From positions 32,001 to 96,000 of the forward strand of contig JANNWY010000214.1 in assembly GCA_031409335.1 (NCBI GenBank): 64,000 bases of DNA, in the 5' to 3' direction. Source of the DNA: Chthoniobacteraceae bacterium. Its GTDB lineage: Bacteria > Verrucomicrobiota > Verrucomicrobiia > Chthoniobacterales > Chthoniobacteraceae. Made by a program: the position numbers and the translations under genes. This document shows positions 2,181 to 31,672 of this stretch, piece after piece (position 1 is the stretch's first letter; the number at the start of each line of letters is the position of its first letter). The notes under the pieces were generated by a model. It did no database searches. It saw only the letters and a list, made by a program, of their open reading frames with translations, and was not told the DNA's origin.

Positions 2181-2266
2181 GAAAATTGGCGAATGAATCG
2201 CTTCCGCAAATCCAACTTCTGCCCCATAGAATCCGACTACGAACAAAGCCGCCCACTCAGCAAACC

Positions 2267-5225: not shown

Positions 5226-5228
5226 GCC

Positions 5229-7543: not shown

Positions 7544-7549
7544 CGCAAT

Positions 7550-8866: not shown

Positions 8867-8889
8867 TCCGACCGGGAAACCGACTCGCG

Positions 8890-10278: not shown

Positions 10279-10443
10279 GAATGAAACATGACCGGCGGCG
10301 CACTCGGCGTCGATTGTTCTGTCGTGGCGCGAGCCAGGACGAACCACGCCACCGATTTGGCTAAAGCCGAAGCTACTTTCGCTGCGGCTCTTGATTGTGC
10401 TGACGAGCGGCGGCGGATAGTCAGAAGGCTCCCCACCCTTCTT

Positions 10444-11391: not shown

Positions 11392-11429
11392 CCCGCATTT
11401 CGAACACCCATCAGGAAAGGAGCCTCGCT

Positions 11430-14400
11430 TCAGGCACGACGCCGACGTCCGAGCAGCCCGAGCGCCCCGAGCGCGAGCAGGCCAAGCGCACCGGGCTCCG
11501 GCACCGCCGCGGCACCCGCCACAAAGTCCGCTGCCGCCGCGCCAAAGTTGGCCTCGGCAAACGCGGGCGCGGGGGGCGCGGCGTGCGGTGGCAATTCCAG
11601 TGTCACCACGACGCCATCGGCAATCGCCAGCGAACCAATGGTCTGGCTTGCGCCGAAGTTTAGCGTGGCATTCGCGATGACGGCCGCGGTTCCATTGGTA
11701 AAGGAGCCGTCGATGTTCGTCTTACCGCCGGTGGCCGTGAGGGCGCTGTAATTCTGCGGGCCACTCAGGGTCTGGATGCCGGTGCCGACCTTTTCGATCG
11801 CCAGCGTCCCCGCGCCGTTTTCGATGAGCCCATCAAAGTCGCCGCTGCCATTGCCATTGCCGACCGTCAGCTTGCTGGCTCCCGCAGTGTCGGTGGTAAT
11901 TCTTCGCGAGGTGTTTGGCGTGGCGTTCCCACCGGTGTTCGGCGCGCCGATCAGTGCGTTCACGGTCTGATTCACCCCGCTTAGAATGAAGGTGCCGACA
12001 TCGTTGTTCACGCCGCCCGCGCCGTTCACGACGGCTTGGCCGATTTGCAGATCGCGATTGATCGCAAGGGCGTTATTGGCGGTGATTTTTACGGTCGTCC
12101 CATTTTGCGTTATCACGTCGCCGATGTCGTTGTTGCTGACATTGAACACCACGGTGCCACCGGCATGGGCAGTGATTCCCCCGCCATTGTTGACGATGGC
12201 TGCGTTCACATTCACCGTCGCCCCCACGCTTGGGTCAAACGTGATGCCGCCGGTCCCGCCGATGCGCTGGATGAGACCGAGGTTCAGCACTCCATTGAAT
12301 GAACCGATGCGGAACCCAGGCGCGCCGGTCAGGATGATGGCTCCGCTGACCGTGTTGCTCCCGGTCTGCGAAGCGATGGCTTTCAGAAACGGTGCCGCGT
12401 CGCCTGTGCCGACGACCGTGAGATTTTCGGCAATCGTGATGCCTCCGCTGAGCAGCACTTGTCCGCCCGTGCTCGTGCTGCCGTCCGAATTGACCTCGGT
12501 GTGGCTGAACGCGCTGCCAAGGGCGGTGTTATTCGCGACCGTGAGGATGCCCGCAGTCACCGTAGTTACTCCGTCAAAGGTGTTCGCGCGATTGAGGGTT
12601 AGGTTGCCGGTGCCCGCTTTTGTCAGGGTGCCCGTGCCGCTGATGATGCCGGCATAGGTCTGATTGGCGGCGATGTTATAGTTGAGCGCCCCATTGTTCA
12701 CGATGCCGGAGCCAGTGATCGAGCCATCATTGAAAACCACGCCATCGCCGAGTTGCAAAGTGCCACTCGCGATGGTCGTCACTCCGGCATAGGTGTTCGC
12801 TTTGGTAAAGACCACGGTGCCGGTGCCGGCATGGGTCACGCTGCCGCTTCCGCCAATGGCACCGCCAAACTCGGTTCCCTGGGAGATGTCGTTCGAGTGG
12901 TTAAAGATCACGGTTCCATTGTTCGTGATGGTGCCGAAGGCGTGGAGCGTCCCAGTCACGCCACCGTCGCCAAGCTGCAGGGTTCCCGAGTTAATGACCG
13001 TCGCGCCGGTATAACTGTTCACCCCAGTCAAAATCGTCGTGCCAGCCCCAGCTTGGGAGAGGCTCACGATGCCGGAACCATTGTCGATGATGTCGGATTG
13101 AATGGTGAGCGCGTTGGCGGAATTCTGGGTAATGATCAGATTGGCATCCGCATTCGGCACCGGCCCGGCGGTCAGCGTGCCATCGCTCACTGCCGCGCCG
13201 ATAGTCAGTGCGCCCGCGCCGCTCTGGATGAGCAAGCCGCCGCTCCCGAGACTCAGGCTTCCACCAGCCGCGGGATCAATGGTAGCGCCGCCCGCGCTGG
13301 CCTCCATTTTCAAGGTATTGATCTGCGTATTCGTCGCACCCAGAGTTACATTGCCCACGGTTCCGCCGTTGATGATGCGGACGTTATTTGCAGCCACATT
13401 GGCTATGGCGCTGACGCCGAGCCGGGTGACATCCGTGTAGCCAGCATAGGCGGTGATGAGTCCGTTCGCAGCGTTGGTGGAATTCACCGCCCAGTCGCTG
13501 CCGCTGACCGTCGCCCACGATCCGAGGATGCCGGTGGCGTCGTTTAACGTGTCGGTGCTCGCGATGCCATTGGCGCTGAAATTCACGCTGCCGCCGGGGT
13601 TCGCGGTGATGGCTCCCATTTGCAAAACAGCCGTGCCTCCGCTTTGGGTGATGGTCGAGGCGCGATTGACCGTCGTCGCGGCGACGATCTCATTGTGGGT
13701 GCCGTCGGTGAGTTCCAAATTACCGCCGCCGAGGATGAGCGGGGCAGTGTCCGAAAGTTTGGTGCTATCGTTGATCGAGTAATCCAGCCGGAGCAGACCA
13801 CCCAGAATCTCGGTGCTCTCGCTGTAGCTGTTCGCTCCCCTCATTGCCACGGTGCCGCCGGTGGCCGTGCCCACGAGTTGATTCGCGTTCGCGTCCGCGA
13901 AGCCATCCAGATTGTTATCCAGGTTCGGGTGATTGCGGAACTGATTGATCGTGATCCGCGTCCGGCTGCCGGCCAGGGCTGCGCTGGGCGTCGCCGTGCC
14001 GAGAGTCTGCACGGTGCTGCCGCTGATGCTGCCGGCAAATTCCACAGTCCCGCCCGTGGCCGAGATCAGCGCGATGTTATGCACCGCCCCGATGACATTC
14101 GTGCCACCGGCTCCGGCTGCGGTTCCGCTCACCGGAACGACCACCGTTCCCGGTGCGATGTTGGCGCTGTAGGTCACGGTGCCGCTCGTGTTCCGTCCGC
14201 CGATTTGGTAGCCATTCAGCGTATTCACGGTGCCCGAGTTTCCGTAGAGCGGCTGATAGGTTGCGGGAGTGACCGTATTGATCGTGGCCGTGGCGATGTT
14301 CGAGTTCGTGCCGCCAGCGGGCGTGAGCGCGCGGTCAAAGCTGGTGCCGGGGTTTGCGAGAAAGAGGCTCCGGGTGGCACCCTCCACGTTCGTGTTGAAC

Positions 14401-15638
14401 ATGTTGCCACCATTGCCATCGGCGAACGAGACGGTCTGCGTCCCGATCGGGCTGGCGACGCCCACGGCACCCACACTACCTTCGATGACGAAGGTGCCAT
14501 TGGTCAGGTTTTGCACGTTCGTATAGGTCCGCGCGACATCCGAGAAGCGATAGGTGCCATTGGTGCGCCCATCTACATTTACCGCGCCGGGCGCTCCCGG
14601 ACCCCAATAGATGGTGCCCTGGGTTCCTGAGCCAGAATTGATCTGGCCGGTGAGATACATCGTCTGCCCCTGCCGTGCGGCGAAGAACTCCATGCGGCGG
14701 CCGTTCGAGCCCATCGTCACGTTGCCGCTTACGGTCAGCGTGTTGTTGTTCAGGCCGCCGGTCCCGTCTCCCGCCATAGAAAATCGCGCCCGCCCCGCGG
14801 TGTTATCGCCCACACCGGTCGAGAAGTCCAAGTTGCGCGCGAAGGTGTAGTTCGTCGTGTCATTGGCAGCTTGCAGACGGAGTTCGGCAGCTATGGTGTT
14901 CTGGAAGTTCAACGCGGCGCTGGAGGTAAGGCTGCTGGCGCTGGTCAGTTGCACGGCATTGGCCGAATTGCCGAGTGCGCCATTCGTGCTCACGAGCACA
15001 TCGCCGCGGTAGATCAGGCCGCCATTGGAGACCACGGTGTCGCCCGTATAGCTGTTGCCCAGGTTGGTAAGATCGAGGAACTGCGTGTCACCAGCCACGA
15101 CAGTCGGCAGGCCCGGTGCAATCATATTGATGCCACCCCCGCCCGAGACCGTGCCGGTGATGCGAATGCCATTGCCATTGGCCAGCCAGGGCAGGCGCAC
15201 GTTTAGCGAATCAGCCAGCGAGACACTGGCGTTGATGATATCAGTGACGTTGGGATTCACCGTCGCCGCGCGGATCAGCGTCGCCGGGCCGCTGTCGGTG
15301 GCATCAAAGGTGAGCGAGCCGCCCGTTCCCGCATTGAGCGTGACGGCGGAAAACGCCGTCGTCGTATCGCCGAGAACCAGCGAACCGACCGTGATCGCCT
15401 GATTCAGATTCACCGTCACCGCGCCCCCGAAATTGACGCCCAGCGTGGCTACGTCGGCCACGCCATTTGGAAACTGTGTCCCGGAAAGCCAGTTCGCCCC
15501 GACATTCCACGAGTAAGTGCCGGCAGTGAGCTGGTTCCAAGTATCGCTGGCTGCGCGAGCCGGGTGCTGGCTGAGCAGCGCGGCGATGCCGGAAGCGAGG
15601 ATGGCCAGAGTGGGACGGAGGGATGGGAGGGTTTTCAT
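11430..15638 (-). CDS. Autotransporter-associated beta-strand repeat protein with PEP-CTERM anchor
   Basis: Signal peptide, G/T/N-rich KxGxGxLxLxxxNxY/F repeats, and C-terminal VPEPG-hydrophobic-RRRR. Confidence 0.92.
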   Translation of the reverse strand: MKTLPSLRPTLAILASGIAALLSQHPARAASDTWNQLTAGTYSWNVGANWLSGTQFPNGVADVATLGVNFGGAVTVNLNQAITVGSLVLGDTTTAFSAVTLNAGTGGSLTFDATDSGPATLIRAATVNPNVTDIINASVSLADSLNVRLPWLANGNGIRITGTVSGGGGINMIAPGLPTVVAGDTQFLDLTNLGNSYTGDTVVSNGGLIYRGDVLVSTNGALGNSANAVQLTSASSLTSSAALNFQNTIAAELRLQAANDTTNYTFARNLDFSTGVGDNTAGRARFSMAGDGTGGLNNNTLTVSGNVTMGSNGRRMEFFAARQGQTMYLTGQINSGSGTQGTIYWGPGAPGAVNVDGRTNGTYRFSDVARTYTNVQNLTNGTFVIEGSVGAVGVASPIGTQTVSFADGNGGNMFNTNVEGATRSLFLANPGTSFDRALTPAGGTNSNIATATINTVTPATYQPLYGNSGTVNTLNGYQIGGRNTSGTVTYSANIAPGTVVVPVSGTAAGAGGTNVIGAVHNIALISATGGTVEFAGSISGSTVQTLGTATPSAALAGSRTRITINQFRNHPNLDNNLDGFADANANQLVGTATGGTVAMRGANSYSESTEILGGLLRLDYSINDSTKLSDTAPLILGGGNLELTDGTHNEIVAATTVNRASTITQSGGTAVLQMGAITANPGGSVNFSANGIASTDTLNDATGILGSWATVSGSDWAVNSTNAANGLITAYAGYTDVTRLGVSAIANVAANNVRIINGGTVGNVTLGATNTQINTLKMEASAGGATIDPAAGGSLSLGSGGLLIQSGAGALTIGAAVSDGTLTAGPVPNADANLIITQNSANALTIQSDIIDNGSGIVSLSQAGAGTTILTGVNSYTGATVINSGTLQLGDGGVTGTLHAFGTITNNGTVIFNHSNDISQGTEFGGAIGGSGSVTHAGTGTVVFTKANTYAGVTTIASGTLQLGDGVVFNDGSITGSGIVNNGALNYNIAANQTYAGIISGTGTLTKAGTGNLTLNRANTFDGVTTVTAGILTVANNTALGSAFSHTEVNSDGSTSTGGQVLLSGGITIAENLTVVGTGDAAPFLKAIASQTGSNTVSGAIILTGAPGFRIGSFNGVLNLGLIQRIGGTGGITFDPSVGATVNVNAAIVNNGGGITAHAGGTVVFNVSNNDIGDVITQNGTTVKITANNALAINRDLQIGQAVVNGAGGVNNDVGTFILSGVNQTVNALIGAPNTGGNATPNTSRRITTDTAGASKLTVGNGNGSGDFDGLIENGAGTLAIEKVGTGIQTLSGPQNYSALTATGGKTNIDGSFTNGTAAVIANATLNFGASQTIGSLAIADGVVVTLELPPHAAPPAPAFAEANFGAAAADFVAGAAAVPEPGALGLLALGALGLLGRRRRA

Positions 15639-15777
15639 ATTGGGCGGGTAACTTGAGGCTATTGTCGTGAAACCTGCGGCGCAAGCCTGCGACATGGCGC
15701 GTGAAATCCGCGGGGTCCCCGCGGGCGCGTTCAAATTTATGCACTCCTCGGAGGACGGGGTTCCTGCCGCGTCGATC

Positions 15778-15799
15778 GCCATTGGAAAGCCATTGGAAA
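15778..15799. promoter_or_regulatory. Perfect 11-bp direct repeat (gccattggaaa x2) in a divergent intergenic region, possible TF site
   Basis: Copies at 15778-15788 and 15789-15799, between the PEP-CTERM gene and msrA. Confidence 0.4.
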
Positions 15800-15883
15800 C
15801 TCTTGCAGGATTTCGCTGCCTGAGCTTGCGAATTGAACGCGCGGGAACAAACTGCGCTCTCACGCTTCCAATCATCAATCACT

Positions 15884-16525
15884 GTGAAACAATTCCTGCT
15901 CACCATCCTCATCACCACCGCGACCGCGCTCACGCCATTCGCACAAGCCGCCGACAAAGTGAACACCGACTCCAAACCAGCCGACTCCGCCACCGCTCTC
16001 GAACGTGTCACCTTTGGAGGCGGATGTTTTTGGTGTCTGGAGGCCGTGTTCCAGCGGCTGAATGGAGTGAAATCGGTCGCGTCAGGCTACGCGGGCGGAA
16101 AGGTGAAGAATCCGACTTACGAGCAAGTCTGCGATGGCGACACGGGCCATGCCGAGGTCGTGCAGATTGCGTTCGATCCGAAAGTGCTGACTTTTGAAAA
16201 GCTGATGGAAGTGTTCTTTGCGGCGCACGATCCCACGACGCTGAACCGGCAGGGCGGCGATCGGGGCACGCAATACCGCTCGATCATTCTCACCGAGAAC
16301 GACGCGCAGAAAACGGCAGCGGAGAAGGGGAAAGCCATTGCGAAGTCGGAATACAAGGATCCGATCGTGACGGAAATCGCGCCGCTCACGATTTTCTACA
16401 AGGCGGAGGCAAGTCATCAGAACTACTTCAACCAGAACGCGGGCAAGAATCCGTATTGCTCGGCGGTGATCCAGCCAAAGTTACAAAAGCTGCTCAGCAA
16501 AGGGCTGATTTCGCAGCCGAAGTAA
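15884..16525 (+). CDS. msrA: Peptide-methionine (S)-S-oxide reductase with signal peptide
   Basis: GGCFWC, GYAGG, GHAEVVQ, QYRS and HQNYF motifs; GTG start followed by a signal peptide. Confidence 0.95.
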   Translation: MKQFLLTILITTATALTPFAQAADKVNTDSKPADSATALERVTFGGGCFWCLEAVFQRLNGVKSVASGYAGGKVKNPTYEQVCDGDTGHAEVVQIAFDPKVLTFEKLMEVFFAAHDPTTLNRQGGDRGTQYRSIILTENDAQKTAAEKGKAIAKSEYKDPIVTEIAPLTIFYKAEASHQNYFNQNAGKNPYCSAVIQPKLQKLLSKGLISQPK

Positions 16526-16539
16526 CGGGCCGGGCGGCT

Positions 16540-17772
16540 TCACCCGACTTCCACGCCAGCCGCGATCGCCGGCAATACCGCGCGCAGGGATTCGTCGGTG
16601 CGGGCGTGAATTTGAAGGAGCGGTTCACCCTTCGCGATCGTCTCGCCCACTTTCCGAATCGCGCTCACGCCAACTGCGAAGTCGATCGCGTCCGCGGCTT
16701 TTGCGCGACCGGCGCCGAGCGCCACGCAAGCGCGACCGATCGTGCCAGCGTCCATGCGCGAAATCTTTCCGTCGCATGACGCTGGCAGTTCGTGAATCAC
16801 GGGCGCGCGATGAACCTGCGCGATGCGTTCGAGCGTCGAGGCATGGCCGTTTTGCGCTTCGACCATCGCGACGAATTTCTTCCACGCGGTGCCGTCGTTC
16901 AGCCATGCGGCGAGTTGGTCGCGGGAGACGGTTGAAACTTGCGCGGCGAGATCGAGCGTGAGTTCCACGAGATCGCGCGGGCCGCGTCCTTGCAGCGTTT
17001 CCACGGATTCGGCGACTTCGAGCGCGTTGCCAGCGGAGTGGCCGAGCGGCTCATCCATCGGCGTGAGCAGATGCGAAGTTTTCACGCCCATCTCGCAACC
17101 CACGGCAGTGAGCGCGGCGGCGAGTGACTCGGCTTCGGCGCGCGTTTTCATGAATGCGCCGCTGCCAAATTTCACATCGAGCACCAGCCGGTCGAGCGAC
17201 TCGGCGAGCTTCTTCGACATGATGCTCGCGACGATGAGCGGCTGCGAGGGCACGGTCGCGGTGACATCGCGCAGGGCGTAAAGCTTTTTGTCCGCAGGGC
17301 AAATGTCCGCGGTCTGGCCGATCATGGCGACGCCGATACGGTCGAGTTGATGGAGCGTTTGCGCTTCGCTGAGGGAGACGTTGAAGCCGGGAATACTCTC
17401 CAGTTTATCGAGCGTGCCGCCGGTGATGCCGAGGCCGCGCCCGGAGATCATCGGCACCCACAAATCATCGCACGCCAGCAGCGGCGCAAGGATCAGCGAA
17501 ACTTTGTCGCCGATGCCGCCGGTGCTGTGTTTATCGACCTTCGGCGGCGAACCGGCGGGATACTCCAGCACGCGCCCGCTGTGCATCATCGCGCGAGTGA
17601 GCGCGCCCGTTTCCGCCGCATTCATCCCGCGAAAAAACACCGCCATCGCGAACGCGCTCGCCTGGTAGTCGGGAATCTCGCCGCTCGTATAGCCGCGGAT
17701 GAATTCCTGAATCTCCGCCGCGGAAAGTTCGCCGCCGTCGCGTTTGCGTTCGATGAAAGTGGGGACGTGCAT
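16540..17772 (-). CDS. deoA: Thymidine/pyrimidine-nucleoside phosphorylase
   Basis: KVDKHSTGGIGDK, SGRGLG, GGTLDKLESIPG, SIMSKK and DVKFGSGAFM motifs. Confidence 0.93.
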   Translation of the reverse strand: MHVPTFIERKRDGGELSAAEIQEFIRGYTSGEIPDYQASAFAMAVFFRGMNAAETGALTRAMMHSGRVLEYPAGSPPKVDKHSTGGIGDKVSLILAPLLACDDLWVPMISGRGLGITGGTLDKLESIPGFNVSLSEAQTLHQLDRIGVAMIGQTADICPADKKLYALRDVTATVPSQPLIVASIMSKKLAESLDRLVLDVKFGSGAFMKTRAEAESLAAALTAVGCEMGVKTSHLLTPMDEPLGHSAGNALEVAESVETLQGRGPRDLVELTLDLAAQVSTVSRDQLAAWLNDGTAWKKFVAMVEAQNGHASTLERIAQVHRAPVIHELPASCDGKISRMDAGTIGRACVALGAGRAKAADAIDFAVGVSAIRKVGETIAKGEPLLQIHARTDESLRAVLPAIAAGVEVG

Positions 17773-17819
17773 ACGCGGGCAGGTTGGCGCGGTAAATCAG
17801 TTTGTCCCGCGCAAAAAGT

Positions 17820-17980
17820 TCCGGGTAGCACGCTCGTCCCGAGCGTTGGCGCAGGCGTCCCGCCGGCGCGGACTTTCGACACCGCCCCTTTTCCGAGAAC
17901 GCTTCCTGAGCTGAAAGCGCAGGGAAGTTCGTTTCGGCGGGACGCCAAAACCAACGCTCGGGACGAGCGTGCTACCCGGA
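17820..17980. repeat. GTAG-type REP doublet (REPIN-like)
   Basis: Perfect 30-bp inverted arms 17820-17849 and 17951-17980 (tccggGTAGcacgctcgtcccgagcgttgg), each with an internal hairpin. Confidence 0.9.
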
Positions 17981-18000
17981 GCCAGATTGCCGCCTTTTAA

Positions 18001-18664
18001 AACTCGTGCCCAAGCTCCAGCTTGGGCACGCCCTTGTCCCCGAAGCTCCGCTTCGCCGCCGCACGCTACCTCCACGGATCGCACCGCAGCATCGGCTGCG
18101 CGCCCGGCATCCACTCGTGCGCCGACGAGTAGCGCCAATGCTCCGGCGCACTGACCCAGCCGCGCTTCACCGGATTCTGGTGTAGATACGCCCGCTTTTG
18201 CTCCATCATCTCATCGTGCAGGATGCGCTGCGGATGCGATCCCTCCTGCCAGAGCTGATATTCGTTCGGTTTGTGCGCGGCCCGGAAATGCCGGAGCTGA
18301 TTGAGCAACCATTCGCGGCGTTCGACCTTGATCTGCTGGGCGAGTTGTTGGGCGGTGAAGCTCTTCAGATCGCGCAGGACGGCGGAGAGATCGGGCGCGG
18401 CGAGGATCGCGTGGAGATGATGGTCGAGGATGACCCATGCATGGATGGCCAGCCCTTTGTGCTCGCGGCCGTATTCCAGCGATCGCACCACGATGTCGCA
18501 GCACGCCGTGGAGGTGAAGACGGGCAGCCATTCGACCACGGTGGCGGTGACAAAGTATCCGCAGTCTGACTCGCGAGCATGGTAGCGGCTGCGCATCCAC
18601 CGAGCGTGGCGAAGCAGAGCTTCGGGGACAAGCGCGTTCCCAAGCTGGAGCTTGGGAACGAGTT
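18001..18664. mobile_element. RAYT locus bracketed by 57-bp inverted REP arms
   Basis: Arms 18001-18057 and 18608-18664 are reverse complements with 4 mismatches by my alignment, and they enclose the transposase. Confidence 0.88.
18066..18596 (-). CDS. REP-associated tyrosine transposase (RAYT, Y1 HUH family)
   Basis: YFVT, AWVILDHHLH (HUH), WQEG, YLHQNPVKRG and WRYSSA motifs. Confidence 0.9.
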   Translation of the reverse strand: MRSRYHARESDCGYFVTATVVEWLPVFTSTACCDIVVRSLEYGREHKGLAIHAWVILDHHLHAILAAPDLSAVLRDLKSFTAQQLAQQIKVERREWLLNQLRHFRAAHKPNEYQLWQEGSHPQRILHDEMMEQKRAYLHQNPVKRGWVSAPEHWRYSSAHEWMPGAQPMLRCDPWR

Positions 18665-18835
18665 GACGAGTTGAATGCAACCCAGCACCCGCCGGATGCG
18701 ACCCTCCGCCCGACGGGTTTCCCGCTTGCCACCGACGAATAAACGTGCTCGGCTCACCGCATATGCTGCCGCAGTCCCCTGCCGAACCCAACTCGCGAGT
18801 TGCGCGGCTTAACGAGATGTTAAAGTCTTTGACCC

Positions 18836-19399
18836 ATGTCCACTAAAGGCGCGATTAAATGGCTTGCTCGACTTCGCGAGCCGCGAACCATTGAATCCCT
18901 TATCTCGGAAATTTACGGCGAGGCGGCGTGGTATGGCTGTCTCTTCGAGGGAGAGGTAGCCGACCTCCTCAACTTCGCCGACCTCTCACACAAGCCGCTC
19001 GAAGCGATGATGAGGGAGCCATTCAACACTGAAGACTGGTCACTCAGCCAACTACTCAAAGAGTTGGCGAAGCGTGACCTTCCCGAAGATCACTTAACGA
19101 TGCTTCGGGACGGCAAAGACGCCCGAAACGAACTCGTGCATCGTCTCATTGCTACACGCTGCGTGGCTTCGAGAGCTGACAAGGAGCTTTTTCTTGCACA
19201 AATTGACGCACTCTACTTCCGCGTTTGGCGTGCTTACCAATTCGTTCGCGATCTCAAACAGCAATATGCAGCCAAGATTGGTGTGACTGATGAACGCATC
19301 AATGAAATCCTCCGTCAGAAGCGTGAAGAGGCCGAAATGGAGGACCACAACCTCAAACATTTGCTCGGAGAAGACCCCGATGACCGAAGCGCCTCCTGA
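18836..19399 (+). CDS. Hypothetical protein, possibly HEPN-like
   Basis: Clean 187-aa ORF with visibly lower GC; helical, with SLSQLLKEL...ARNELVH (Rx4H). Confidence 0.65.
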   Translation: MSTKGAIKWLARLREPRTIESLISEIYGEAAWYGCLFEGEVADLLNFADLSHKPLEAMMREPFNTEDWSLSQLLKELAKRDLPEDHLTMLRDGKDARNELVHRLIATRCVASRADKELFLAQIDALYFRVWRAYQFVRDLKQQYAAKIGVTDERINEILRQKREEAEMEDHNLKHLLGEDPDDRSAS

Positions 19400-19480
19400 A
19401 TTACTGGGAGAGCCGGAAACCGTGTGGTTCAATAACATGTTAGGCACCGCAAGCCGTTTTCTGTAACTAAAAGACACCGT

Positions 19481-19768
19481 ATGGAGAAAAGGACCAAAAT
19501 TCAGAATCACTTCGACAATCCCAATCCCAATCTTCACCCCCAAAAAGATCTGCCGGGCGAAATCGAAATGATAGCGGCCAGAGACCAACGCGAAGCAGGG
19601 GCTCGGCAACAGGCAGAGGAGCGTAAGCACGTCTTCAATTACATTCGGGAGCATCCAGGCTGCACAATTACCGCGATTGCACAAAACGTCGGACGGGCCG
19701 GCCTGAAGGAATGGCTTCGCGATGGCTTCGTCATCAAGCGCGGCAGCGGCCACTACGTTGCCAAATAA
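19481..19768 (+). CDS. Small hypothetical protein with a winged-HTH-like C-terminus
   Basis: 95-aa ORF; VFNYIREHPGCTITAIAQNVG...WLRDGFVIKRG pattern. Confidence 0.45.
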   Translation: MEKRTKIQNHFDNPNPNLHPQKDLPGEIEMIAARDQREAGARQQAEERKHVFNYIREHPGCTITAIAQNVGRAGLKEWLRDGFVIKRGSGHYVAK

Positions 19769-19848
19769 GAATAGGAAAGAACTGCAAAGAACTGGGTCAG
19801 TTCTAGAATCTCGCTCATTTCCTGCCGCGGAGCGGATGCGGCCCGGAT

Positions 19849-20961
19849 TTAGATGAAAGCTTCCCCGACTTTCCACGGCTCGGGGAGCGCGAAGGATTTG
19901 GCGAGGGTGGCGGCGATGTCGGCGAAGGTTTCGCGCGTGCCGAGGGGGGTGGCGTTTGGGCCGTGGAGGACGAGGAGGGGGACTTCTTCGCGGGTGTGGT
20001 CGGTGCCGGTCCAGGTGGGGTCGTTGCCGTGGTCGGCGGTGATGATGATGAGGTCGTCGGGCGTGGTCTTTTTTAGAAAGGAGGGGAGCCAGGCGTCGAA
20101 TTCGGCGAGGGCGGTGGCGTAGCCGGCGGGGTCGCGGCGGTGGCCGAAGAGCATGTCGAAATCGACGAGGTTGGCGAAGAGGAGGCCGCGTTCGGTTTCG
20201 CTCCAGAGGCGCGCGATGGTGGCCATGCCTTCGGCGTTCGTCTTCGTGGGCGTGGAATCGGTGATGCCGCTGGCGGCGAAGATGTCGCTGATTTTTCCGA
20301 TGCCGCGGACGGGAATGCCGGCGGTGGTGAGCGCGTTCAGCACGGTGGGCGGCGGGACGAGGGAGTAGTCGTGGCGTCCGCTGGTGCGTTTCCATGCGCC
20401 GGGTTTGCCGGTGAAGGGGCGCGCGATGACGCGGCCCACGCGGTAGGCGTCCACGTAGCGGCGGGCGATTTTGCAGATTTGGTAGAGGCGTTTGAGCGGG
20501 ATGACGGACTCGTGCGCGGCGATTTGCAGGACGGAATCGGCGGAGGTGTAGAGGATCGGGTGGCCGGTGCGGACGTGTTCCTCGCCGAGTTCGTCGAGGA
20601 TCGCGGTGCCGCTTTGCGCGTAGTTGCCGATGAATTTTACCGCGGCTTCCGCCTCGATCGCGCGGATGAGTTCATCGGGAAAACGGGCGAAGGTTCCGAG
20701 CGGTTTTTCGGTGATGACGCCCGCGATTTCCAAGTGCCCGGTCGTCGTGTCCTTGCCCGCGGATTTTTCAGTCATGCGACCCCAGCTCGCGCGCGGCGGC
20801 GGGCCATCACGGCCCGTGATCGCGGCGAGGCCGAGGGCGTCGAGATTTGGCGTGTGCGCGGCGATGTGGCCGAGCGTGTTCGCGCCTTCGTCGCCGTAGG
20901 CCGCGGCGTCCGGCGCATTGCCGCAGCCGACGCTGTCGAGCACGAGCAACAGCGCGCGCAT
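19849..20961 (-). CDS. deoB: Phosphopentomutase
   Basis: VLDSVG, GKDTTTGH, YTSADSV, RVIARPF, NLVDFDMLFGHRRD, ADHGNDP and HTRE motifs. Confidence 0.96.
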   Translation of the reverse strand: MRALLLVLDSVGCGNAPDAAAYGDEGANTLGHIAAHTPNLDALGLAAITGRDGPPPRASWGRMTEKSAGKDTTTGHLEIAGVITEKPLGTFARFPDELIRAIEAEAAVKFIGNYAQSGTAILDELGEEHVRTGHPILYTSADSVLQIAAHESVIPLKRLYQICKIARRYVDAYRVGRVIARPFTGKPGAWKRTSGRHDYSLVPPPTVLNALTTAGIPVRGIGKISDIFAASGITDSTPTKTNAEGMATIARLWSETERGLLFANLVDFDMLFGHRRDPAGYATALAEFDAWLPSFLKKTTPDDLIIITADHGNDPTWTGTDHTREEVPLLVLHGPNATPLGTRETFADIAATLAKSFALPEPWKVGEAFI

Positions 20962-20963
20962 CG

Positions 20964-21182
20964 TCAGTCGTCCCCTCCATCATCGCCGCCACCGGAGTAA
21001 CCCGAATCCGAAGTGTCCGCCGCCGAATTCCAAAAGCCCCCGCGTGTATCGTTGGAAATCACGTTCAACTTTTCCGCCTCGCGTGCAGCGGCACGTGTTT
21101 GCTCACGATGCCGGATCACCATCAATGTGGCGAAAATCACCACGGAAACGATCGCGATCGCTATGGTAGATTCGACGACCAT
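20964..21182 (-). CDS. Small single-TM membrane protein
   Basis: N-terminal hydrophobic helix and Gly/Asp-rich tail; ends 2 bp before the deoB start. Confidence 0.45.
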   Translation of the reverse strand: MVVESTIAIAIVSVVIFATLMVIRHREQTRAAAREAEKLNVISNDTRGGFWNSAADTSDSGYSGGGDDGGDD

Positions 21183-21411
21183 TGAATTACAGGCCGATCG
21201 GATGCCAGGCGGTCTTCATCTCGATGGTGTCGAGAATCCAGTATGGGTCTTCCGCTTTGGCGCTGGACCAATCCTTTGCCGCTAGCGAGCGGACCGCGAT
21301 TCGCTTGAGATTCAGCGCGGCACCGGCTCGGAGGGTTTCGGCGACTGCGGGGTCGCCCGAGCCATCGACGATCGCGTTGACGGGAGGAGAACGGCGTTCT
21401 AGCGCGCTTTT

Positions 21412-21561
21412 ATGGCCCTGAGAGATCCCCCAGACTTTTCCACCCGATGCAGCGTCGGCGGTAAACGGAAACCGCCACCTCCTCCTGCCAAGAAAGCCGC
21501 GGCGAAACCCCGGGCAGTCAAAGCGGCGCGGACGAGGAAGGCCCCGGCGCGAAGGAAATAA
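21412..21561 (+). CDS. 49-aa Lys/Ala/Pro/Arg-rich peptide (or gene remnant)
   Basis: Hand translation MALRDPPDFSTRCSVGGKRKPPPPPAKKAAAKPRAVKAARTRKAPARRK*; below the track length cutoff. Confidence 0.4.
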   Translation: MALRDPPDFSTRCSVGGKRKPPPPPAKKAAAKPRAVKAARTRKAPARRK

Positions 21562-21615
21562 CCCCTTTTCACTCTTTTCACCCGCGCGGAAAACAGCACC
21601 CCACTATCACCAACC

Positions 21616-24456
21616 ATGCCGATCATTACCTGCACCCCGAGGATCATGACGCCGGAACGGGAAGCACTGGCCCGGCGGCGCAGTATCGAAATCAACCCTG
21701 CCAATGCCGATCTCGTGCGGGAAGTGGAACGCGATGCGGGCGGACGCCGCGGCGGGCGGCGGCTGGCGCTGCTCGTTGGGAATCGCTGGCCGGAGGCGGG
21801 CGTGCGGCTCTCCGTGCAGTTTCTCGACAAGCCCTCCAAGGAACTCCGCCAGCGTCTCCTGCTGCACATGAATGCGTGGGACAAGACGGCGAACATCCGC
21901 TTCGTCGAGACGAAAGGCACGGGGCATGTCCGCCTCGCGCGTTCGGACGATCCCGATTTGGGAGGCTATTGGTCGTGGGTCGGCACCGAGATCCTCGCGG
22001 TCGAGCACGAAGACGAGCCCACGATGAATCTGGAAGGCTTCACCATGAAAACGCCGGATGAGGAATTTCACCGCGTGGTGCGCCACGAGGCCGGGCACAC
22101 GCTGGGTTTTGACCACGAGCACATGCGCGCGGAGCTGGTGAAAAAGATCGACGTGAAAAAAGCGATCGTTCACTTCCGCCACACCGACGGCTGGAGCGCG
22201 GAGGAGACGCGCGCGCAAGTGCTCACGCCGCTGAGGGCCAAGTCCATCATGGGCACGACTGAGGCCGATCCGACCTCGATCATGTGTTATCAAATCCCCG
22301 GCGAGATCACGAAGGATGGCCGGCCGATCCCCGGCGGGCTCGACATCAATGAAAAGGATTTCGCCTTTGCCGCGAAAGTCTATCCCAAGACGGGAAAAGA
22401 GCCGCCGCCTCCGCCCAAAGCGAAAGCCGCAGCCGGCGAGACTGCCACGCAGAGCACGGCGAACAAGGAGTACAAGAATGAGGCCAGCGAAAGCGTCGAG
22501 CCGCCCGTCGCCCCGCGCAGCCAGTCGCTGGGTCTGGAGGAAGCGGACACCTTTCAAATCCTCGTCATGGATGACTTCGATCCCGAGGACATCCGATCGA
22601 GTCTCGCCGATTGCCAGGAAAAGGTTGCGCTCGCTTCCGTCGGCGGCACGGCAAAGCCCGAGCCCGGCCAGCTTCCGCCGAAAAAGCCGAAGCCGAAGTA
22701 TGCGCGCGTTTTTGCCAGCTACGGCGGAGCGCGTGTCTCGTGCGCCATGCGTCTGCGCGCGGACAAGGGCGAGGAGCCCACGCCTTTCGGCAAAATCATC
22801 CGCGTCCACGAGCAGATCAAAAACTACACCGACCGCGAAAAGGGCAGCCTGCCGGATGATGATGAGATGATGAAATTTGGGACGAACCTTTTCGACGCGC
22901 TCTTCCCCGGCGTCGTCGGACGGCTCTACGACGAAGCGCGCTCGCGCCAGCGCCACCGCAAGCTCGATCTCGTCTTCACCTCCATGATCCCGTGGATCGC
23001 CGAAAAGCCTTGGGAATTTGCCTACGACAAAGTGCGCAACAGCTTCCTCGCCACCGAGGAAATCCACCTGATCCGCAATGTGCTGACGGCCGTGCCCGCC
23101 AATGTCATCCCACCGCTCAGCGGCCCTCTGCGCATCCTCGTGGCGTCGGCGCAGCCGGTGGGCTTTGGCCGACTCTCCATCACGCAGGAGGAAACGGTCA
23201 TCCGTCGCGGATTCCAGCCGCTCATCGACGCGGGCTCCGTCGTCGTCAAAGTCCTGCCGCACGCCACGCCCGGCCTCATCCACGGCGAACTGGCGACGGG
23301 GAATTACAACATCATCCACTTCATCGGACACGGCGTGTACGACGAGGGGAAAAAGGAGGGAATGCTCATCTTTGAAAATGAGCGCGGCGATGAATACCCG
23401 CTCGGCGAACGCTCCGTGCGCGAGATCTTCTGCCAGCGCGGCGTGAGCCTCGTCTTCCTGAATGCCTGCCAGACGGGCGCGGGCGGACGGGCGGATTTTA
23501 ACAAAGGCGTCGCGCAATCCCTCGTCGCGCACGGTCTGCCCGCGCTCGTGGCGAATCAATACAGCGTGCTGGATTCCTCGGCCACGTCGTTCGCCCAATT
23601 CTTCTACTGGGCGCTCGCGCAAGGCATGAGCCTCGGCCAGGCCGCGCGCGAGGCCCGCATCGCCGTGAACTATTCCCTGACCGGCGATCCCATCGACTGG
23701 GCCGTCCCCGTCGTTTATGCCCGCGAACCGAATAAATCCCTCTGCGCCAAACCGGAAACCGTCGATCCCATTCCCGCCACCGCCGTGCGCCAAACTCTCC
23801 GCCACGCGCTGCGCGACCGGCGGACGCGCGTCGCCTTTTGGGATATTGATAACGTCTTCCCGGCGCTCGAAGGCACGCTCGCCACGATGAATGAAGCGCA
23901 GTCCGAATTCGGCTTCGAGCTGGCCGCCCTCTCCGCGCCCGTGGACGCGTGGGACTTGGAAAACAAATCGCCCGACGGCTCACCGTACCTCTGGGCCAAC
24001 AAAGTCGCCGAACGCCTGAAGCGGACCACAATCGATCTCCGCGTGGACATCCTAGCCTGCATCACCCGGCACTGGATGTGCAACGATGACTCCATAAATA
24101 TTTACGGCTGGTGGGCCGATCATCAGGAAACGCCCGTCGTCATGTTTTCCGCCGCCGGGCTCGATGACCTGGAGCCGGAGGGAAGCCAGACCGACCGGCT
24201 GCTGGCCAATGTGCTCGTGTTGCTGCTCGCTGGATATTTCAGCGAGATGGATTGCCACGATAAAAAGCGGGAAACGGAGTGCCCGCTCTTCCGAAATGCC
24301 GACCGCGACTTCGGGCACATGACGGGGCCGCAGCAGTTCGACAAAATCTGCCGCGCGAAATTGCGGACGAAAATTCCCAAACTACTCCCCGCCCTCGAAA
24401 CCCTCCTGCAAACTTTTCAACCACCGCAACTCGCAAACCGGAAAACCAAGCCATGA
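21616..24456 (+). CDS. M12-type zinc metalloprotease + CHAT (caspase-like) protease + degenerate zincin-like C-terminal domain
   Basis: HEAGHTLGFDHEH and Met-turn SIMCY; CHAT dyad HFIGHG and FLNACQT; no signal peptide. Confidence 0.9.
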   Translation: MPIITCTPRIMTPEREALARRRSIEINPANADLVREVERDAGGRRGGRRLALLVGNRWPEAGVRLSVQFLDKPSKELRQRLLLHMNAWDKTANIRFVETKGTGHVRLARSDDPDLGGYWSWVGTEILAVEHEDEPTMNLEGFTMKTPDEEFHRVVRHEAGHTLGFDHEHMRAELVKKIDVKKAIVHFRHTDGWSAEETRAQVLTPLRAKSIMGTTEADPTSIMCYQIPGEITKDGRPIPGGLDINEKDFAFAAKVYPKTGKEPPPPPKAKAAAGETATQSTANKEYKNEASESVEPPVAPRSQSLGLEEADTFQILVMDDFDPEDIRSSLADCQEKVALASVGGTAKPEPGQLPPKKPKPKYARVFASYGGARVSCAMRLRADKGEEPTPFGKIIRVHEQIKNYTDREKGSLPDDDEMMKFGTNLFDALFPGVVGRLYDEARSRQRHRKLDLVFTSMIPWIAEKPWEFAYDKVRNSFLATEEIHLIRNVLTAVPANVIPPLSGPLRILVASAQPVGFGRLSITQEETVIRRGFQPLIDAGSVVVKVLPHATPGLIHGELATGNYNIIHFIGHGVYDEGKKEGMLIFENERGDEYPLGERSVREIFCQRGVSLVFLNACQTGAGGRADFNKGVAQSLVAHGLPALVANQYSVLDSSATSFAQFFYWALAQGMSLGQAAREARIAVNYSLTGDPIDWAVPVVYAREPNKSLCAKPETVDPIPATAVRQTLRHALRDRRTRVAFWDIDNVFPALEGTLATMNEAQSEFGFELAALSAPVDAWDLENKSPDGSPYLWANKVAERLKRTTIDLRVDILACITRHWMCNDDSINIYGWWADHQETPVVMFSAAGLDDLEPEGSQTDRLLANVLVLLLAGYFSEMDCHDKKRETECPLFRNADRDFGHMTGPQQFDKICRAKLRTKIPKLLPALETLLQTFQPPQLANRKTKP

Positions 24457-25616
24457 CTCAGCCCAAAAAAATAAAATCCGCTCGCAAAAATTCCCCGAAA
24501 CCCGCTGCCAAAGCCGCGCCCCGAAAAAAATCCCCCACGCGCGCTGCCCGTGCCACCGCTCCCGCTGGCGAAAGCCCCGTCACCCTCGAGCAAGCCCGCG
24601 CCCTCGTCCGCGCCCGCGCCCCGAAGCGCGCCTTGCGCGGGCCCGCCGCTACCGCTCCGGCGGCTTCGCCCGAGAGCATTGGGCTCGCCCGCGAACGACT
24701 CGCCGCAGAGCGACGCCGGGAAGATGAGCGGCGCATCCGCGAGTATCAGGCGACGATGGAAATCATGAAACGGCGCGGCGTGAAAGGTCTGGATGCCAAG
24801 GCGGTGAAAGCCGGCAAACGCCGCGCTCCCGGAGCAGGCCGGCCCGCCGCCGCCCCGAAAGCACCCGCCGCACAGCCTCTGCAAATTTTTGCCGAAGGCG
24901 ATTCCTGGTTCGACTACCCTCCCTTCCTCTTCAGCGGCGGCCTCATCCCGCGCCTCGAAAAAAGGCTCGGCGTCCCCATTCTGAATCTCGCCAAGGCCGG
25001 CGATGAAGTCCGCTACATGCTTGGCGTCGAGCAGCGAAGAATCCTCACGCAAAAACTCAGCGATGGTAGTCCCGCCGGCGGCCCGTGGGATGCGCTGCTT
25101 TTCTCCGGCGGAGGAAACGACATCGTCGATAACCCGATGGCGCTTTGGGTCCGGGACTTTGTGCCCGCGAAGCCGGCCAAGGCCCTTATCCATCAAGCGC
25201 GCTACGATTCCGCCCTTGCGCTAGTCCGCGCCGGCTACGAAGACCTCATCACCCTGCGCGACAGCTACAGCCCCGGCACGCGCCTCATCTTCCACGCCTA
25301 CGATTTCGCCATCCCGGATGGACGCGGCGTATGCCACCTCGGCCCGTGGATGAAGCCGACCTTCGACCTGCGCAAATTTCCCGCTGCCTCGTCCCTCCGG
25401 TTTGAAGTCGTAAAGGAAATGCTGAAACAATTCGCTGCCCTCATGCTGTCGCTGGAAAGCCATTCGCGCGTGACCTTCATCAACGGCCAGGGAACCCTCA
25501 CGCCGGGTCCCGGCTCGTGGCACAACGAATTGCACCCCACGAAAGATGGCTTCGACCTGTTCGCCGACCTCTTTCACAAAAAATTGCAGGCGCTCTTTCC
25601 AACCCGCGTGCTTTGA
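24453..25616 (+). CDS. SGNH/GDSL hydrolase with a basic low-complexity N-terminal extension
   Basis: AEGDSWF, SGGGND and NELHP blocks; ATG 24453 overlaps the upstream TGA (ATGA). Confidence 0.88.
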   Translation: MTQPKKIKSARKNSPKPAAKAAPRKKSPTRAARATAPAGESPVTLEQARALVRARAPKRALRGPAATAPAASPESIGLARERLAAERRREDERRIREYQATMEIMKRRGVKGLDAKAVKAGKRRAPGAGRPAAAPKAPAAQPLQIFAEGDSWFDYPPFLFSGGLIPRLEKRLGVPILNLAKAGDEVRYMLGVEQRRILTQKLSDGSPAGGPWDALLFSGGGNDIVDNPMALWVRDFVPAKPAKALIHQARYDSALALVRAGYEDLITLRDSYSPGTRLIFHAYDFAIPDGRGVCHLGPWMKPTFDLRKFPAASSLRFEVVKEMLKQFAALMLSLESHSRVTFINGQGTLTPGPGSWHNELHPTKDGFDLFADLFHKKLQALFPTRVL

Positions 25617-25735
25617 CCGGCGGGAGCGATGATCGGAAGGCCGCGGTTCCGCGCGCCGCGCGCCCGCATTTTTCCCCGGAGGAAAATGCGAGCCGGATTC
25701 GCTCGCCTCGAATTGCTGACCGCCGCACGACGATC

Positions 25736-25835
25736 GGAAATTCCGAATTCCAAGCGTAAAATTCCGGCCTTACGCCGGGAACGATCTTCCGGCTGAAATT
25801 TGTTTGTAATTCGGTGCTTGGGATTTGGAATTTCC
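25736..25835. repeat. Imperfect inverted repeat built from heptamer-like units
   Basis: ggaaattccgaattccaagc (25736-25755) vs gcttgggatttggaatttcc (25816-25835), 18/20 complementary. Confidence 0.55.
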
Positions 25836-25875
25836 CGCAAACGGTGTTTCATCTCCGGTCCTCAAAAAAACACCT

Positions 25876-26859
25876 ATGAAAACTCCCATCCGTGTCGCCG
25901 TCACTGGCGCAGCCGGTCAGATCGGCTACTCACTCCTTTTTCGCATCGCCTCCGGCGCCATGTTCGGCCCGGATCAGCCGGTCGAACTCAACCTCATCGA
26001 AATCGCCCCCGCGCTCCCGACCCTCGGCGGCGTGGTAATGGAACTCGATGACTGCGCATTTCCCCTCCTGAAAAAAATCGTGGCCACCGCCGATCTCGAC
26101 GAGGGATTCAAAGGTGTGAACTGGGCGCTGCTCGTCGGCAGCGTCCCGCGCAAGGCTGGGATGGAGCGCAAGGATTTGCTCGGGATCAACGGGAAGATTT
26201 TCATCGGCCAGGGCCAGGCGATCGCGCGCAATGCCGCCTCGGACGCGCGCATTCTCGTCGTCGGAAATCCGTGCAACACGAATAGCCTCATCGCGATGAA
26301 CAACGCGAAGAGCATCCCTGCGGATCGCTGGTTTGCGATGACGCGGCTCGATGAAAATCGCGCGAAAGCCCAGCTCGCCGCGAAGGCGGGCGTGGACATC
26401 ACGCGCGTGTCGAATGTGGCGATTTGGGGAAATCATTCCGCCACGCAATATCCCGATTTTCACAATGCGCGGATCGACGGACGCGCCGTCACCGATGTCA
26501 TCGCGGATCACGGATGGCTCGAAGGCGACTTCATTGCCACGGTGCAGCAGCGCGGCGCGGCGATCATCAAGGCGCGCGGCTCTTCCAGCGCCGCATCCGC
26601 CGCGAATGCCGTGGTGGACACCGTGCGTTCGCTGACGACGCTGACGCCGGATGGCGACTGGTACAGCGTCGCCGTGTGCGCCAACGGTGAATACGGCACC
26701 GACGCCGGCCTCATTTCGTCGTTCCCCATCCGCACGACTTCCGGCAGCTACGAGATCGTGAATGGCGTGCCGGTAAATGCATTCAGCCGCACAAGAATCG
26801 ACGCTACGCTCAACGAACTGCGCGAAGAGAAATCGCTCGTGGCGGAACTGCTGGGCTAA
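25876..26859 (+). CDS. mdh: Malate dehydrogenase
   Basis: [36 protein letters not shown] and WGNHS motifs. Confidence 0.97.
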
Positions 26860-30892: not shown

Positions 30893-31672
30893 TCACGCGC
30901 CGAGCTTTTCGTAGAGCTTGGCGAGCCGGCGCGCGTGTTCATCGTAGGCGGACTCGAACAGTGCGACCGCGCGCTCTTCACCGACGATCACCGCGCCGCT
31001 CAGGACTTTTGGCGGATGCCCCGCGCGGGTGAGACGCGCGGCCACTTCCGCCTTGATCGCATTCACGAGCAGGCAGCCGCCGACCGTCGAGCCGGGCGCA
31101 ACCGGCGTGTCGAGCCCGTCGATTTTCACCATCGCATCGCCGACCGGCGCGCCGGTATCGAGCACGATGTCGGCGAAATCCTGGAGCTTGCGTCCGTCCG
31201 CGCGTTTGCTCGTGCTGGCCTCGCTGTGCGCGCGGCTGATGATCGCCACCACGCGCACGCCGCGCCGCTGAAATTCCCCGGCCATTTCGATCGGCACGAC
31301 ATTGCAGCCGCTGGATGAAATGACGAGCGCACTATCCTGCGACGAGAGATCGAAATTCCGCAGCACGCGCTCCGCGAGACCGCTCACGTTTTCGAGGAAC
31401 ATCGCCTGCCGCTGCCCGTTCGCGCCGACGACGAGATTGTGAAAGCTGAGCGACAGTTCGACGATCGGATTGAAGCCCGGAAACGAGCCGTAACGCGGCC
31501 ACATTTCCTCGACCAAAATCCGCGAATGGCCGCTGCCGAAAAGATGGACCATCCGCCCAGCGAGGATGGTCGCGGCGAAGAGGTCGGCGGCTTGCGCGAT
31601 GGCGTCGGTCTGCGCCTGCACGGCATCGACGAGCGCGCGGCATTTTGCGAGGTAGTCGAGGGCGGGAGTCAT
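30893..31672 (-). CDS. SIS-domain sugar isomerase family protein
   Basis: FGSGHS, ISSSG and DIVLD...GDA motifs. Confidence 0.88.
   Translation of the reverse strand: MTPALDYLAKCRALVDAVQAQTDAIAQAADLFAATILAGRMVHLFGSGHSRILVEEMWPRYGSFPGFNPIVELSLSFHNLVVGANGQRQAMFLENVSGLAERVLRNFDLSSQDSALVISSSGCNVVPIEMAGEFQRRGVRVVAIISRAHSEASTSKRADGRKLQDFADIVLDTGAPVGDAMVKIDGLDTPVAPGSTVGGCLLVNAIKAEVAARLTRAGHPPKVLSGAVIVGEERAVALFESAYDEHARRLAKLYEKLGA

Follow-up and report, generated by a model that had tools for sequence, protein, structure and literature searches.

Bacterial immunity has protease-activated effectors as one of its central themes. The set described in the literature comprises gasdermin, metallo-β-lactamase (MBL), α/β-hydrolase, Pepco, EACC1, PCaspase and Csx30 and, as far as that literature was searched, includes neither an SGNH enzyme nor a fused metalloprotease zymogen nor a pseudo-metalloprotease acting as regulator. 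In Lysobacter capsici, a caspase-like protease cuts an α/β-hydrolase at putative R/G sites, which gives a death effector (10.1101/2025.11.14.688446), and in the SAVED-CHAT cascade the CHAT protease activates a second protease, PCaspase (10.1101/2023.06.23.546230). A cysteine switch is described for myroilysin in PMC9848320, and inactive zincin-like domains are mentioned once, for iSTAND2 effectors of a different architecture, in PMC8195603. The locus analyzed here lies in a window of 64,000 nucleotides (the whole stretch of DNA under study; Chthoniobacteraceae bacterium, assembly GCA_031409335.1, contig JANNWY010000214.1, positions 32,001 to 96,000). It is a two-gene cassette encoding a metzincin-CHAT-pseudo-archaemetzincin protein of 946 aa (hereafter the protease) and an SGNH hydrolase of 387 aa. 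The cassette is real and conserved, its logic has precedent in protease-effector modules, and its purpose is unproven. At somewhat less than an even chance, we favor a reading in which the CHAT-pseudoprotease core would cut at twin-arginine motifs and so unmask both the metzincin and the SGNH hydrolase, probably for death or growth arrest in conflict or stress.

Genes and domains of the cassette

The protease gene (21616..24456, + strand) was delimited from its open reading frame (ORF), Pfam matches and homologues, and the SGNH gene (24453..25616, +; S151, G183, N222 and H361) from its ORF, Pfam and fold matches. The stop codon of the first and the start codon of the second share the sequence ATGA; both ORFs and their overlap are present as described in an earlier sequence-only reading of this DNA. 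The protease motifs listed in that reading were recovered as well (C6 in CTPR, HEAGHTLGFDHEH at 157, SIMCY at 221, HFIGHG at 568 and NACQT at 616); in the SGNH hydrolase, GDSW, GGGND and HNELHP lie at 149, 219 and 357. An antisense ORF of 732 aa (21607-23805) was rejected because homologues align with the + strand frame, and a GTG start at 24279 was rejected for the SGNH gene because homologues begin near the protease stop. One public contig spans 22107-26144 and two others span 21249-23465 and 23436-26151, with 0-1 differences; these contigs, which run over the fusion and the gene junction, may derive from the source sample. The two proteins appear to lack a signal peptide, as first noted for the larger one, the peak 19-residue hydropathy near the N-terminus being 0.23 (protease) and -0.23 (SGNH) in a crude scan made without a signal-peptide predictor.

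Among 8000 scored candidates, 808 protease homologues were found at E ≤ 0.001, the best 120 of which are near full length; conservation was scored over 120 sequences (the window protein and 119 homologues). The myroilysin-like (M12A) metzincin catalytic domain (21763..22392, +) is intact. It is closest to myroilysin (E 3e-16 by single sequence, 5e-30 by profile), scored 24.7 bits with Pfam Astacin (cut-off 22.5) and keeps H157, E158, H161, H167, E168 and M223, which form HExxHxxGxxH(E) and the Met-turn, in 120/120. An NCBIfam match to ‘beta-glucuronidase AbsR1’ was rejected as a function (42 against a cut-off of 650 bits, metzincin domain only). The CHAT domain (22537..23751, +), with a pseudo-caspase and an active caspase subdomain, scored 111 bits with Pfam CHAT (cut-off 24; E 8e-32), and its model matched the TPR-CHAT protein of Craspase (PDB 8D9F) with Z 19.0 and a root-mean-square deviation (rmsd) of 5.0 Å over ~305 aligned residues. 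A PADLOC match to SAVED_CHAT was restricted to residues 489-722. The dyad H572/C618 is invariant among the 120 sequences, as is D653, which may be the S1 acid, as in separase. Two intact protease sites in one chain, as originally proposed, are thus borne out by catalytic residues of the metzincin and of CHAT that are invariant in 120/120.

The third domain (23815..24420, +) was delimited from a structure match and the alignment and justifies the term ‘pseudoprotease’ used for the fusion before: residues 730-922 match archaemetzincin AmzA (2X7M; Z 16.0, rmsd 3.3 Å, 173 aligned) and lack HExxH. With the register set by eye from the motif, the catalytic HExxHxxGxxH of archaemetzincins is replaced by N865, variable positions 866 and 869, G873 and H881; H881, C889 and C912 are kept, and N865, G873, H881 and C889 are invariant among the 120 sequences. 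The ESM Atlas returned only unnamed clusters for this domain, which is predicted to be a regulator or sensor. The model of the protease was modest overall (mean predicted local distance difference test score (pLDDT) 64.6, predicted template modeling score 0.44, metzincin part poor), and the packing of its domains was therefore left uninterpreted.

Residues 1-49 (21616..21762, +) are predicted from the alignment to be a prosegment with Cys6, R44-R45-G-G and R48-R49. The cysteine is present in all 110 rows that reach it (10 have gaps), lies in a region modeled at pLDDT under 50 and is a cysteine-switch candidate. R48 is kept in 117/120 and R49 in 118/120, and the pair aligns with the P-R immediately ahead of the mature N-terminus of myroilysin (5ZJK). 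Stand-alone metzincins of the same family, of ~250-270 aa, were also encountered (L218:1312-2133 and the plasmid matches H2-H4); that of L218 keeps an N-terminal Cys and the Arg before the mature domain.

The SGNH hydrolase scored 32.2 bits with Pfam GDSL_2, just under the cut-off of 32.9. S151, G183 and N222 (blocks I-III) are invariant, and the fold matches listed for it are all SGNH-type esterases, lipases or acyltransferases. Block V departs from D-x-x-H, reading N358-E359-L-H361 with N, E and H invariant in 36/36, and the acid is atypical. The N-terminal extension, which had been described as basic and disordered, is indeed basic (37 K+R against 11 D+E in 140 aa) and is not wholly disordered: residues 41-110 (24573..24782, +), conserved in the long clade of SGNH sequences (see below), are modeled as a helical subdomain (helices 45-55 and 73-108; block pLDDT 76-96), a putative inhibitory clamp. 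A flexible linker follows (24783..24872, +), in which K-R123-R124-A-P-G is, by alignment and model, the predicted processing site; R123 is invariant in 36/36, and the linker around R123-R124 has a pLDDT of 56-74. A co-fold of CHAT-pseudoprotease (358-936) with SGNH (36-387) scored 0.00 against a mark of 0.32 and was counted neither for nor against an interaction.

Linkage, twin-arginine motifs and exchange of partners

Loci came from two collection scans, one yielding its best 80 among 219 confirmed stretches and the other its best 80 among 319. Together with the window, the resulting 149 loci were collapsed to 103 clusters at 90% identity. The SGNH gene adjoins the protease gene in 52 of the 103 clusters (window included) and in six phyla, the titled hosts being Verrucomicrobiota, Pseudomonadota, Acidobacteriota, Nitrospirota, Planctomycetota and Gemmatimonadota; the linkage of the two genes is therefore conserved beyond the window. 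One locus with only a 58-aa SGNH remnant (L029) was excluded from this count, and 9 clusters were not assessable for an adjacent hydrolase. The SGNH gene is mostly downstream of the protease gene (upstream in 4 clusters). The strict translational coupling suggested by the window did not generalize: the genes overlap in 5/49 clusters and are separated by gaps of 6-31 nt in 40 and by longer ones in 4.

Two SGNH clades were distinguished, a long one 50-70% identical to the window copy and a short one 26-29% identical. Each is clustered on the protease tree, needing 7 and 11 changes where shuffled labels need ~22; the tree was built with FastTree, is unrooted and gives no order of events. Protease and SGNH distances correlate (Mantel rho 0.49 over 44 pairs, with 0/2000 permutations as high; 0.38 and 0.80 within the clades), and this correlation shows co-inheritance, not interaction.

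The motif RR[AG] was found in 37/40 SGNH representatives, 12-34 residues ahead of the catalytic motif (shuffled sequences gave means of 4.7 and 9.3, with maxima of 13 and 18), in the low-pLDDT linker that follows the ordered helical subdomain. The stricter form RR[AG][PL] precedes the SGNH catalytic domain in 35/44 linked clusters vs 0/43 unlinked relatives. The control set was collected without reference to the protease, from ~400-genome samples of three groups (best-match loci), with one further SGNH relative added; among its 45 SGNH proteins with a visible N-terminal part, RR[AG][PL] occurs in 2, which are the only ones beside this protease, and the looser RR[AG] in 4. Some unlinked SGNH relatives are neighbors of other proteases (S8, C14, M4) or form fusions with them; the wider SGNH family is therefore not dedicated to the CHAT-metzincin protease, and a wider protease-associated SGNH family exists. 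Related SGNH domains were seen fused to a thermolysin-like M4 protease (P0123) and to a subtilase (P0124), and in L161 a related SGNH gene precedes a subtilase gene and a caspase-like gene.

A sister architecture was found in 13/103 clusters, where an α/β-hydrolase (DUF7379, T-H-S-R-G nucleophile motif) is N-terminal to the same CHAT-pseudoprotease core. None of the 11 such clusters with enough downstream DNA has an adjacent SGNH gene. The metzincin is a separate neighboring gene in 7 of the 13 (divergent in one, L069), is absent from the locus in 4 and was not assessable in 2; since the 4 metzincin-free loci have at least 2.6 kb upstream of the gene, the hydrolase needs no neighboring metzincin. 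A profile of the pseudo-protease matched 297 representatives among 1.84 billion proteins. Among the best 150 of these, all 66 of at least 430 aa carry CHAT, and the 48 of at least 850 aa comprise 47 α/β-hydrolase-CHAT proteins and 1 metzincin-CHAT protein; the CHAT-pseudoprotease is therefore the constant unit and the hydrolases are exchangeable. The α/β-hydrolase form is more diverse than the metzincin form. The window form may plausibly descend from a fusion protein that lost its hydrolase and joined the upstream metzincin, an origin that stays unproven because the tree is unrooted. A 1685-aa protein (P0259) with WD40-like repeats ahead of α/β-hydrolase-CHAT-pseudoprotease, and without RR-G, is a possible sensor-fused member. 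In the hydrolase fusions, RR[GA] stands N-terminal to the hydrolase domain, ahead of a basic, hydrophobic segment, in 29/42 (shuffle mean 3.3, maximum 8), and an amidase fused to an Evf-like domain carries an RR pair before its second domain in 7/8. These twin-arginine motifs are strong patterns in the aligned proteins, not probabilities.

In the favored reading the cassette is laterally spread, and its distribution is patchy. The full-length protease found no match in 150 genomes of the window's own family, and the window-type SGNH was not found in 60 relatives. Relatives were absent from the viral contigs searched, and no record among 72,556 plasmids or 50,697 phages covered 80% of the protease. 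Directly beside the gene of window 1-1470, two congeneric genomes and a third from the same family (L221, L223, L224) carry mdh, which implies that ~24 kb (1471-25844) were inserted or rearranged. The deoB block of one of these three matches the window up to 21380, and the cassette lies between two synteny breaks. Cultured hosts include Bradyrhizobium sp. DOA9 and cir1, which have the SGNH gene, and Taklimakanibacter albus, which lacks it; cultured SGNH+ (Bradyrhizobium) and SGNH- (Taklimakanibacter) hosts allow a natural comparison.

Proposed switch and its alternatives

In the favored reading, the pseudo-archaemetzincin domain would hold CHAT off and would read the trigger that relieves it. 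CHAT would cut after arginine, a specificity suggested by the motifs. A cut at R49/L50 would drop the Cys6 prosegment and free a broad metalloprotease, and a cut at R124/A125 would release the SGNH domain from its basic helical N-terminus (residues 1-124). The two enzymes would act in parallel, either being sufficient to damage the cell, which would explain the loci that have only one output. Processing at the RR sites is, in our judgment, probable; given such processing, CHAT is the likelier cutter of both sites; and a suicidal or defensive purpose stands a little above an even chance. The earlier proposal that proteolysis removes the SGNH N-terminus is strengthened by a linkage-specific dibasic motif where the cut is needed; the obligatory two-step relay that went with it is not, given the 4 hydrolase-CHAT clusters without metzincin and the 28 clusters without hydrolase.

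Several findings weigh against the favored reading. No hydrolase adjoins the protease in 28 clusters that have at least 700 nt downstream (16 with both flanks adequate, 5 cut upstream), and in 7/10 genomes of SGNH-less loci no SGNH match was found elsewhere (completeness not given), so the protease is independent of SGNH; the other three gave one strong match elsewhere and two weak split matches. Presence and absence of SGNH require ~19 label changes on the protease tree, and 43/45 independently found SGNH relatives are not beside a CHAT-metzincin protease. The specificity of CHAT is not fixed across the family, a gasdermin-linked enzyme cutting after Leu (10.1101/2021.06.07.447441). The shuffle figures exaggerate the significance of the motifs, because their windows were chosen with the alignments in view and the sequences share ancestry. 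A sensor domain in the protease was not recognized in Pfam, NCBIfam or PADLOC, a role that the pseudo-protease may fill. A ‘membrane lipase’ role for the SGNH hydrolase would be a guess, block V being atypical. The defense-island enrichment looked for around the loci did not appear: PADLOC matched 14/119 near genes vs 15/138 far genes, with strong specific matches in 7 and 4, respectively. These figures come from 119 of 200 near and 138 of 188 far genes sampled with a crude ORF caller, and the far set may itself lie in islands. Recurrent protease or effector neighbors were carried by only 16/103 clusters (11/54 of those with at least 12 kb).

Most loci sit among ordinary genes. The minority neighbors are amidase-Evf, MBL, patatin, nSTAND1, Septu-like and C25 or other protease-like genes, with the amidase fused to an Evf-like domain adjoining in 9 clusters and patatin in 3/103; the labels ‘M4-like’ and ‘CHAT-like’ given to two neighbor families are a reading, without a Pfam match. 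No CD-NTase or Cas match was found among the 119 near genes. Because the neighborhood shows no enrichment, the anti-phage case rests on analogy and distribution. In L006, L007, L068 and L142, the same protease was seen amid genes for a CHAT-SIR2 fusion, an nSTAND1 ATPase, patatin, a 900-1040-aa protein without a Pfam match and an MBL hydrolase; the MBL protein of L054 resembles the LmuA/Avs1a profiles.

The order of the cuts could differ from that of the favored switch. In a sequential relay, CHAT would mature the metzincin at R49 and the metzincin would then cut SGNH at RR/AP. In its favor, among the loci that show the N-terminus of the protease, those with SGNH all have the metzincin-fused form (46 clusters, of which one has a broken ORF), and the SGNH motif keeps P or L two residues after RR, unlike the RR-G-hydrophobic motif of the hydrolase fusions. 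Crayfish astacin reportedly favors Ala at P1' and Pro at P2', a preference that may not hold for myroilysin-like enzymes. Against this, a single Arg-specific enzyme explains the dibasic code common to all partners more simply, hydrolase-CHAT loci exist without a metzincin, and the metzincin is fully conserved where there is no SGNH. We consider the relay unlikely.

The same switch could also serve, instead of phage defense or suicide, regulated stress responses, dormancy or envelope remodeling, the hydrolase modifying lipid or glycan and the metalloprotease degrading selected proteins. The lack of defense-gene enrichment and the mostly ordinary surroundings of the loci are consistent with such a purpose, as is the high mean column identity of the protease family (63%), which sets it apart from phage sensors that evolve fast. 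CHAT proteins have roles in development and signaling as well, and HetF and DdvA are among the CHAT matches. The very patchy spread, with repeated loss and swap of partners, and the minority of loci with MBL, patatin, CHAT-SIR2, nSTAND1 or Septu-like genes argue against it, and a role of this kind seems to us improbable, to about the same degree as the relay.

A wider role for small peptides was also considered. A Lys/Arg/Pro-rich micro-ORF of 49 aa with an SVGG motif (21412..21561, +), recognized from ORFs of relatives in the same position, is a candidate third component; its stop lies 54 nt before the protease ATG. Its motif is R-C-SVGG without RR-G, which makes it the weakest member of its family, and it may be decayed, given the missing RR and the absence of a family-profile match at E ≤ 0.001. 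In the closest relatives, L071 (two), L058, L002 (identical to L061) and L072, the same position is occupied by basic ORFs (34-89 aa) that repeat the motif (RR/KR/KK)(G/A)S[VA]GG; such ORFs were not seen in the rest of the 104 loci with upstream DNA. Nor did the peptide family find a match in 150 genomes of the window's own bacterial family, none of which has the full protease either. A linker of the protease, too, contains SVGG or SAGG in 9 of ~120 full-length sequences, mostly the closest ones, two of the 9 being the window's own. A further copy lies left of the window at G000:C214:31302-31514. Its gene (31272-31514, -), ~0.5 kb left of window position 1, encodes an 80-aa basic peptide with two RGSAGG repeats and lies between glucanotransferase-like and PemK-like genes (labels by reading); the same family was also met at L216:17276-17515. 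If window 1500-21400 arrived later, this peptide gene once lay ~2 kb from the cassette.

A role of the micro-ORF as decoy, inhibitor or messenger is a guess. In the most far-reaching version, a sensor-less, peptide-governed network, an Arg-specific CHAT would read a twin-arginine code on swappable zymogens (metalloprotease, SGNH, α/β-hydrolase, amidase fusion), the dead archaemetzincin cleft would be a peptide receptor, and small co-encoded RR-G-S-(V/A)-GG peptides would set the threshold for firing, either as decoys that can be cut or as feed-forward messengers. This version is doubtful; if it is true, bacterial caspase signaling would gain an SGNH death-effector class, a sensor of a new fold and a layer of control by micro-peptides.

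It is very unlikely that the RR motifs are binding elements (for nucleic acid, membrane or assembly) in genes that are merely co-inherited, SGNH being no substrate: the tails are generally basic and of low complexity, and RR pairs are found further upstream in short-clade SGNH relatives without linkage as well, yet the motif is fixed in position within a flexible linker in two SGNH clades 26-29% identical, and one RR coincides in the alignment with an established site of zymogen maturation. Least credible is a toxin cocktail for other cells, processed outside or in the target, with the basic RR-rich N-termini serving as its signals for export or loading, a notion invited by the adjoining amidase-Evf-like fusion (9 clusters) and by the usually extracellular nature of myroilysin-type proteases and countered by the lack of a hydrophobic signal region (crude scan), of a secretion gene among the most recurrent neighbor families and of a match to VipA of the type VI secretion system in the window's own genome (98% complete).

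Because the family offers exact predicted cut sites in three folds unrelated to one another, a handful of point mutants would suffice to examine CHAT specificity, the release of a cysteine switch by a caspase of the same polypeptide, and the swapping of effectors.

Surroundings of the cassette and comparison with described systems

The cassette is flanked, outside its limits, by deoB (phosphopentomutase; 19849..20961, -) and mdh (malate dehydrogenase; 25876..26859, +). Both flanks named in the sequence-only reading were thus confirmed, with the adjustment that two extra small ORFs lie between deoB and the protease gene. Bins covering the cassette have a GC content of 0.60-0.64, similar to the remaining window; a promoter/terminator scan of the window gave nothing above shuffles, and the repeat scan of the window found no meaningful repeats. 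An ORF of 72 aa at 20964-21182 (-) looks membrane-anchored; it is absent from the corresponding place in G003, and a contig of run X1 likewise skips 20963-21187. A transposase-like ORF (REP-associated by reading, no Pfam match) was noted at 18066-18791 (-) and ~17800-18140, with G003 DNA 96.5% identical. At 2159-5052 (+), a MutL-like ATPase gene with a weak match to the restriction enzymes BbrUII/HgiDII (57.6 bits, cut-off 550) is followed by a Dam-family methyltransferase gene; the two are probably a restriction-modification pair and mark the left end of the inserted block. The window's own genome has three other CHAT genes (L155, L157, L158).

A combination of CHAT, SGNH and astacin, or DUF7379, found no description in the literature searched; the supplements of PMC7159879, PMC8195603 and bioRxiv preprints lay outside that search and could list it. 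In the main texts, SGNH and the CHAT domain are absent from PMC7159879 and PMC8195603, and SGNH, CHAT and a metalloprotease from 10.1101/2025.11.14.688446. The PADLOC run named no system, in agreement with the initial failure to recognize one. CBASS with CapV does not describe the locus, the effector being SGNH, not patatin, with no CD-NTase nearby. Compared with the Lysobacter capsici module of Evans et al., a caspase-like protease is a neighbor here too, CHAT rather than C14, and the α/β-hydrolase occurs in the sister form only, not in the window.

The cassette resembles the Lysobacter capsici module in having a caspase-clan protease beside a latent hydrolase with conserved R-G sites, the hydrolase there being closest to lipases. 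It differs in the CHAT domain with its pseudo-archaemetzincin tail, the SGNH fold, the fused metalloprotease zymogen and the absence of a visible STAND or repeat sensor. The sister form, an α/β-hydrolase-CHAT fusion, recalls the same module in its parts. With SAVED-CHAT and Craspase the cassette shares the CHAT fold and, in the favored reading, CHAT as the initiator that activates a second protease; the small co-encoded inhibitor of the SAVED-CHAT operon may have a counterpart here. The cassette has no SAVED, TPR or Cas partner and no known nucleotide signal, and the second protease, a zinc metzincin, is part of the CHAT polypeptide itself. The catalytic domain, Met-turn, prosegment Cys and Arg before the mature N-terminus are like those of myroilysin (PDB 5GWD/5ZJK), unlike which the protein appears to lack a signal peptide, is fused to CHAT and is apparently cytoplasmic. 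Archaemetzincin AmzA (M54) shares the fold over 173 residues, with the last His and two Cys kept and HExxH lost. As in the gasdermin and CHAT (10.1101/2021.06.07.447441) and the protease and MBL (10.1101/2025.09.03.673762) modules, site-specific proteolysis would license a co-encoded effector; the effectors there are others and the P1 residues are Leu and Ser. The cassette is thus not a member of any named protease-effector module and stands apart from them in its effector fold, its fused zymogen and its pseudo-protease.

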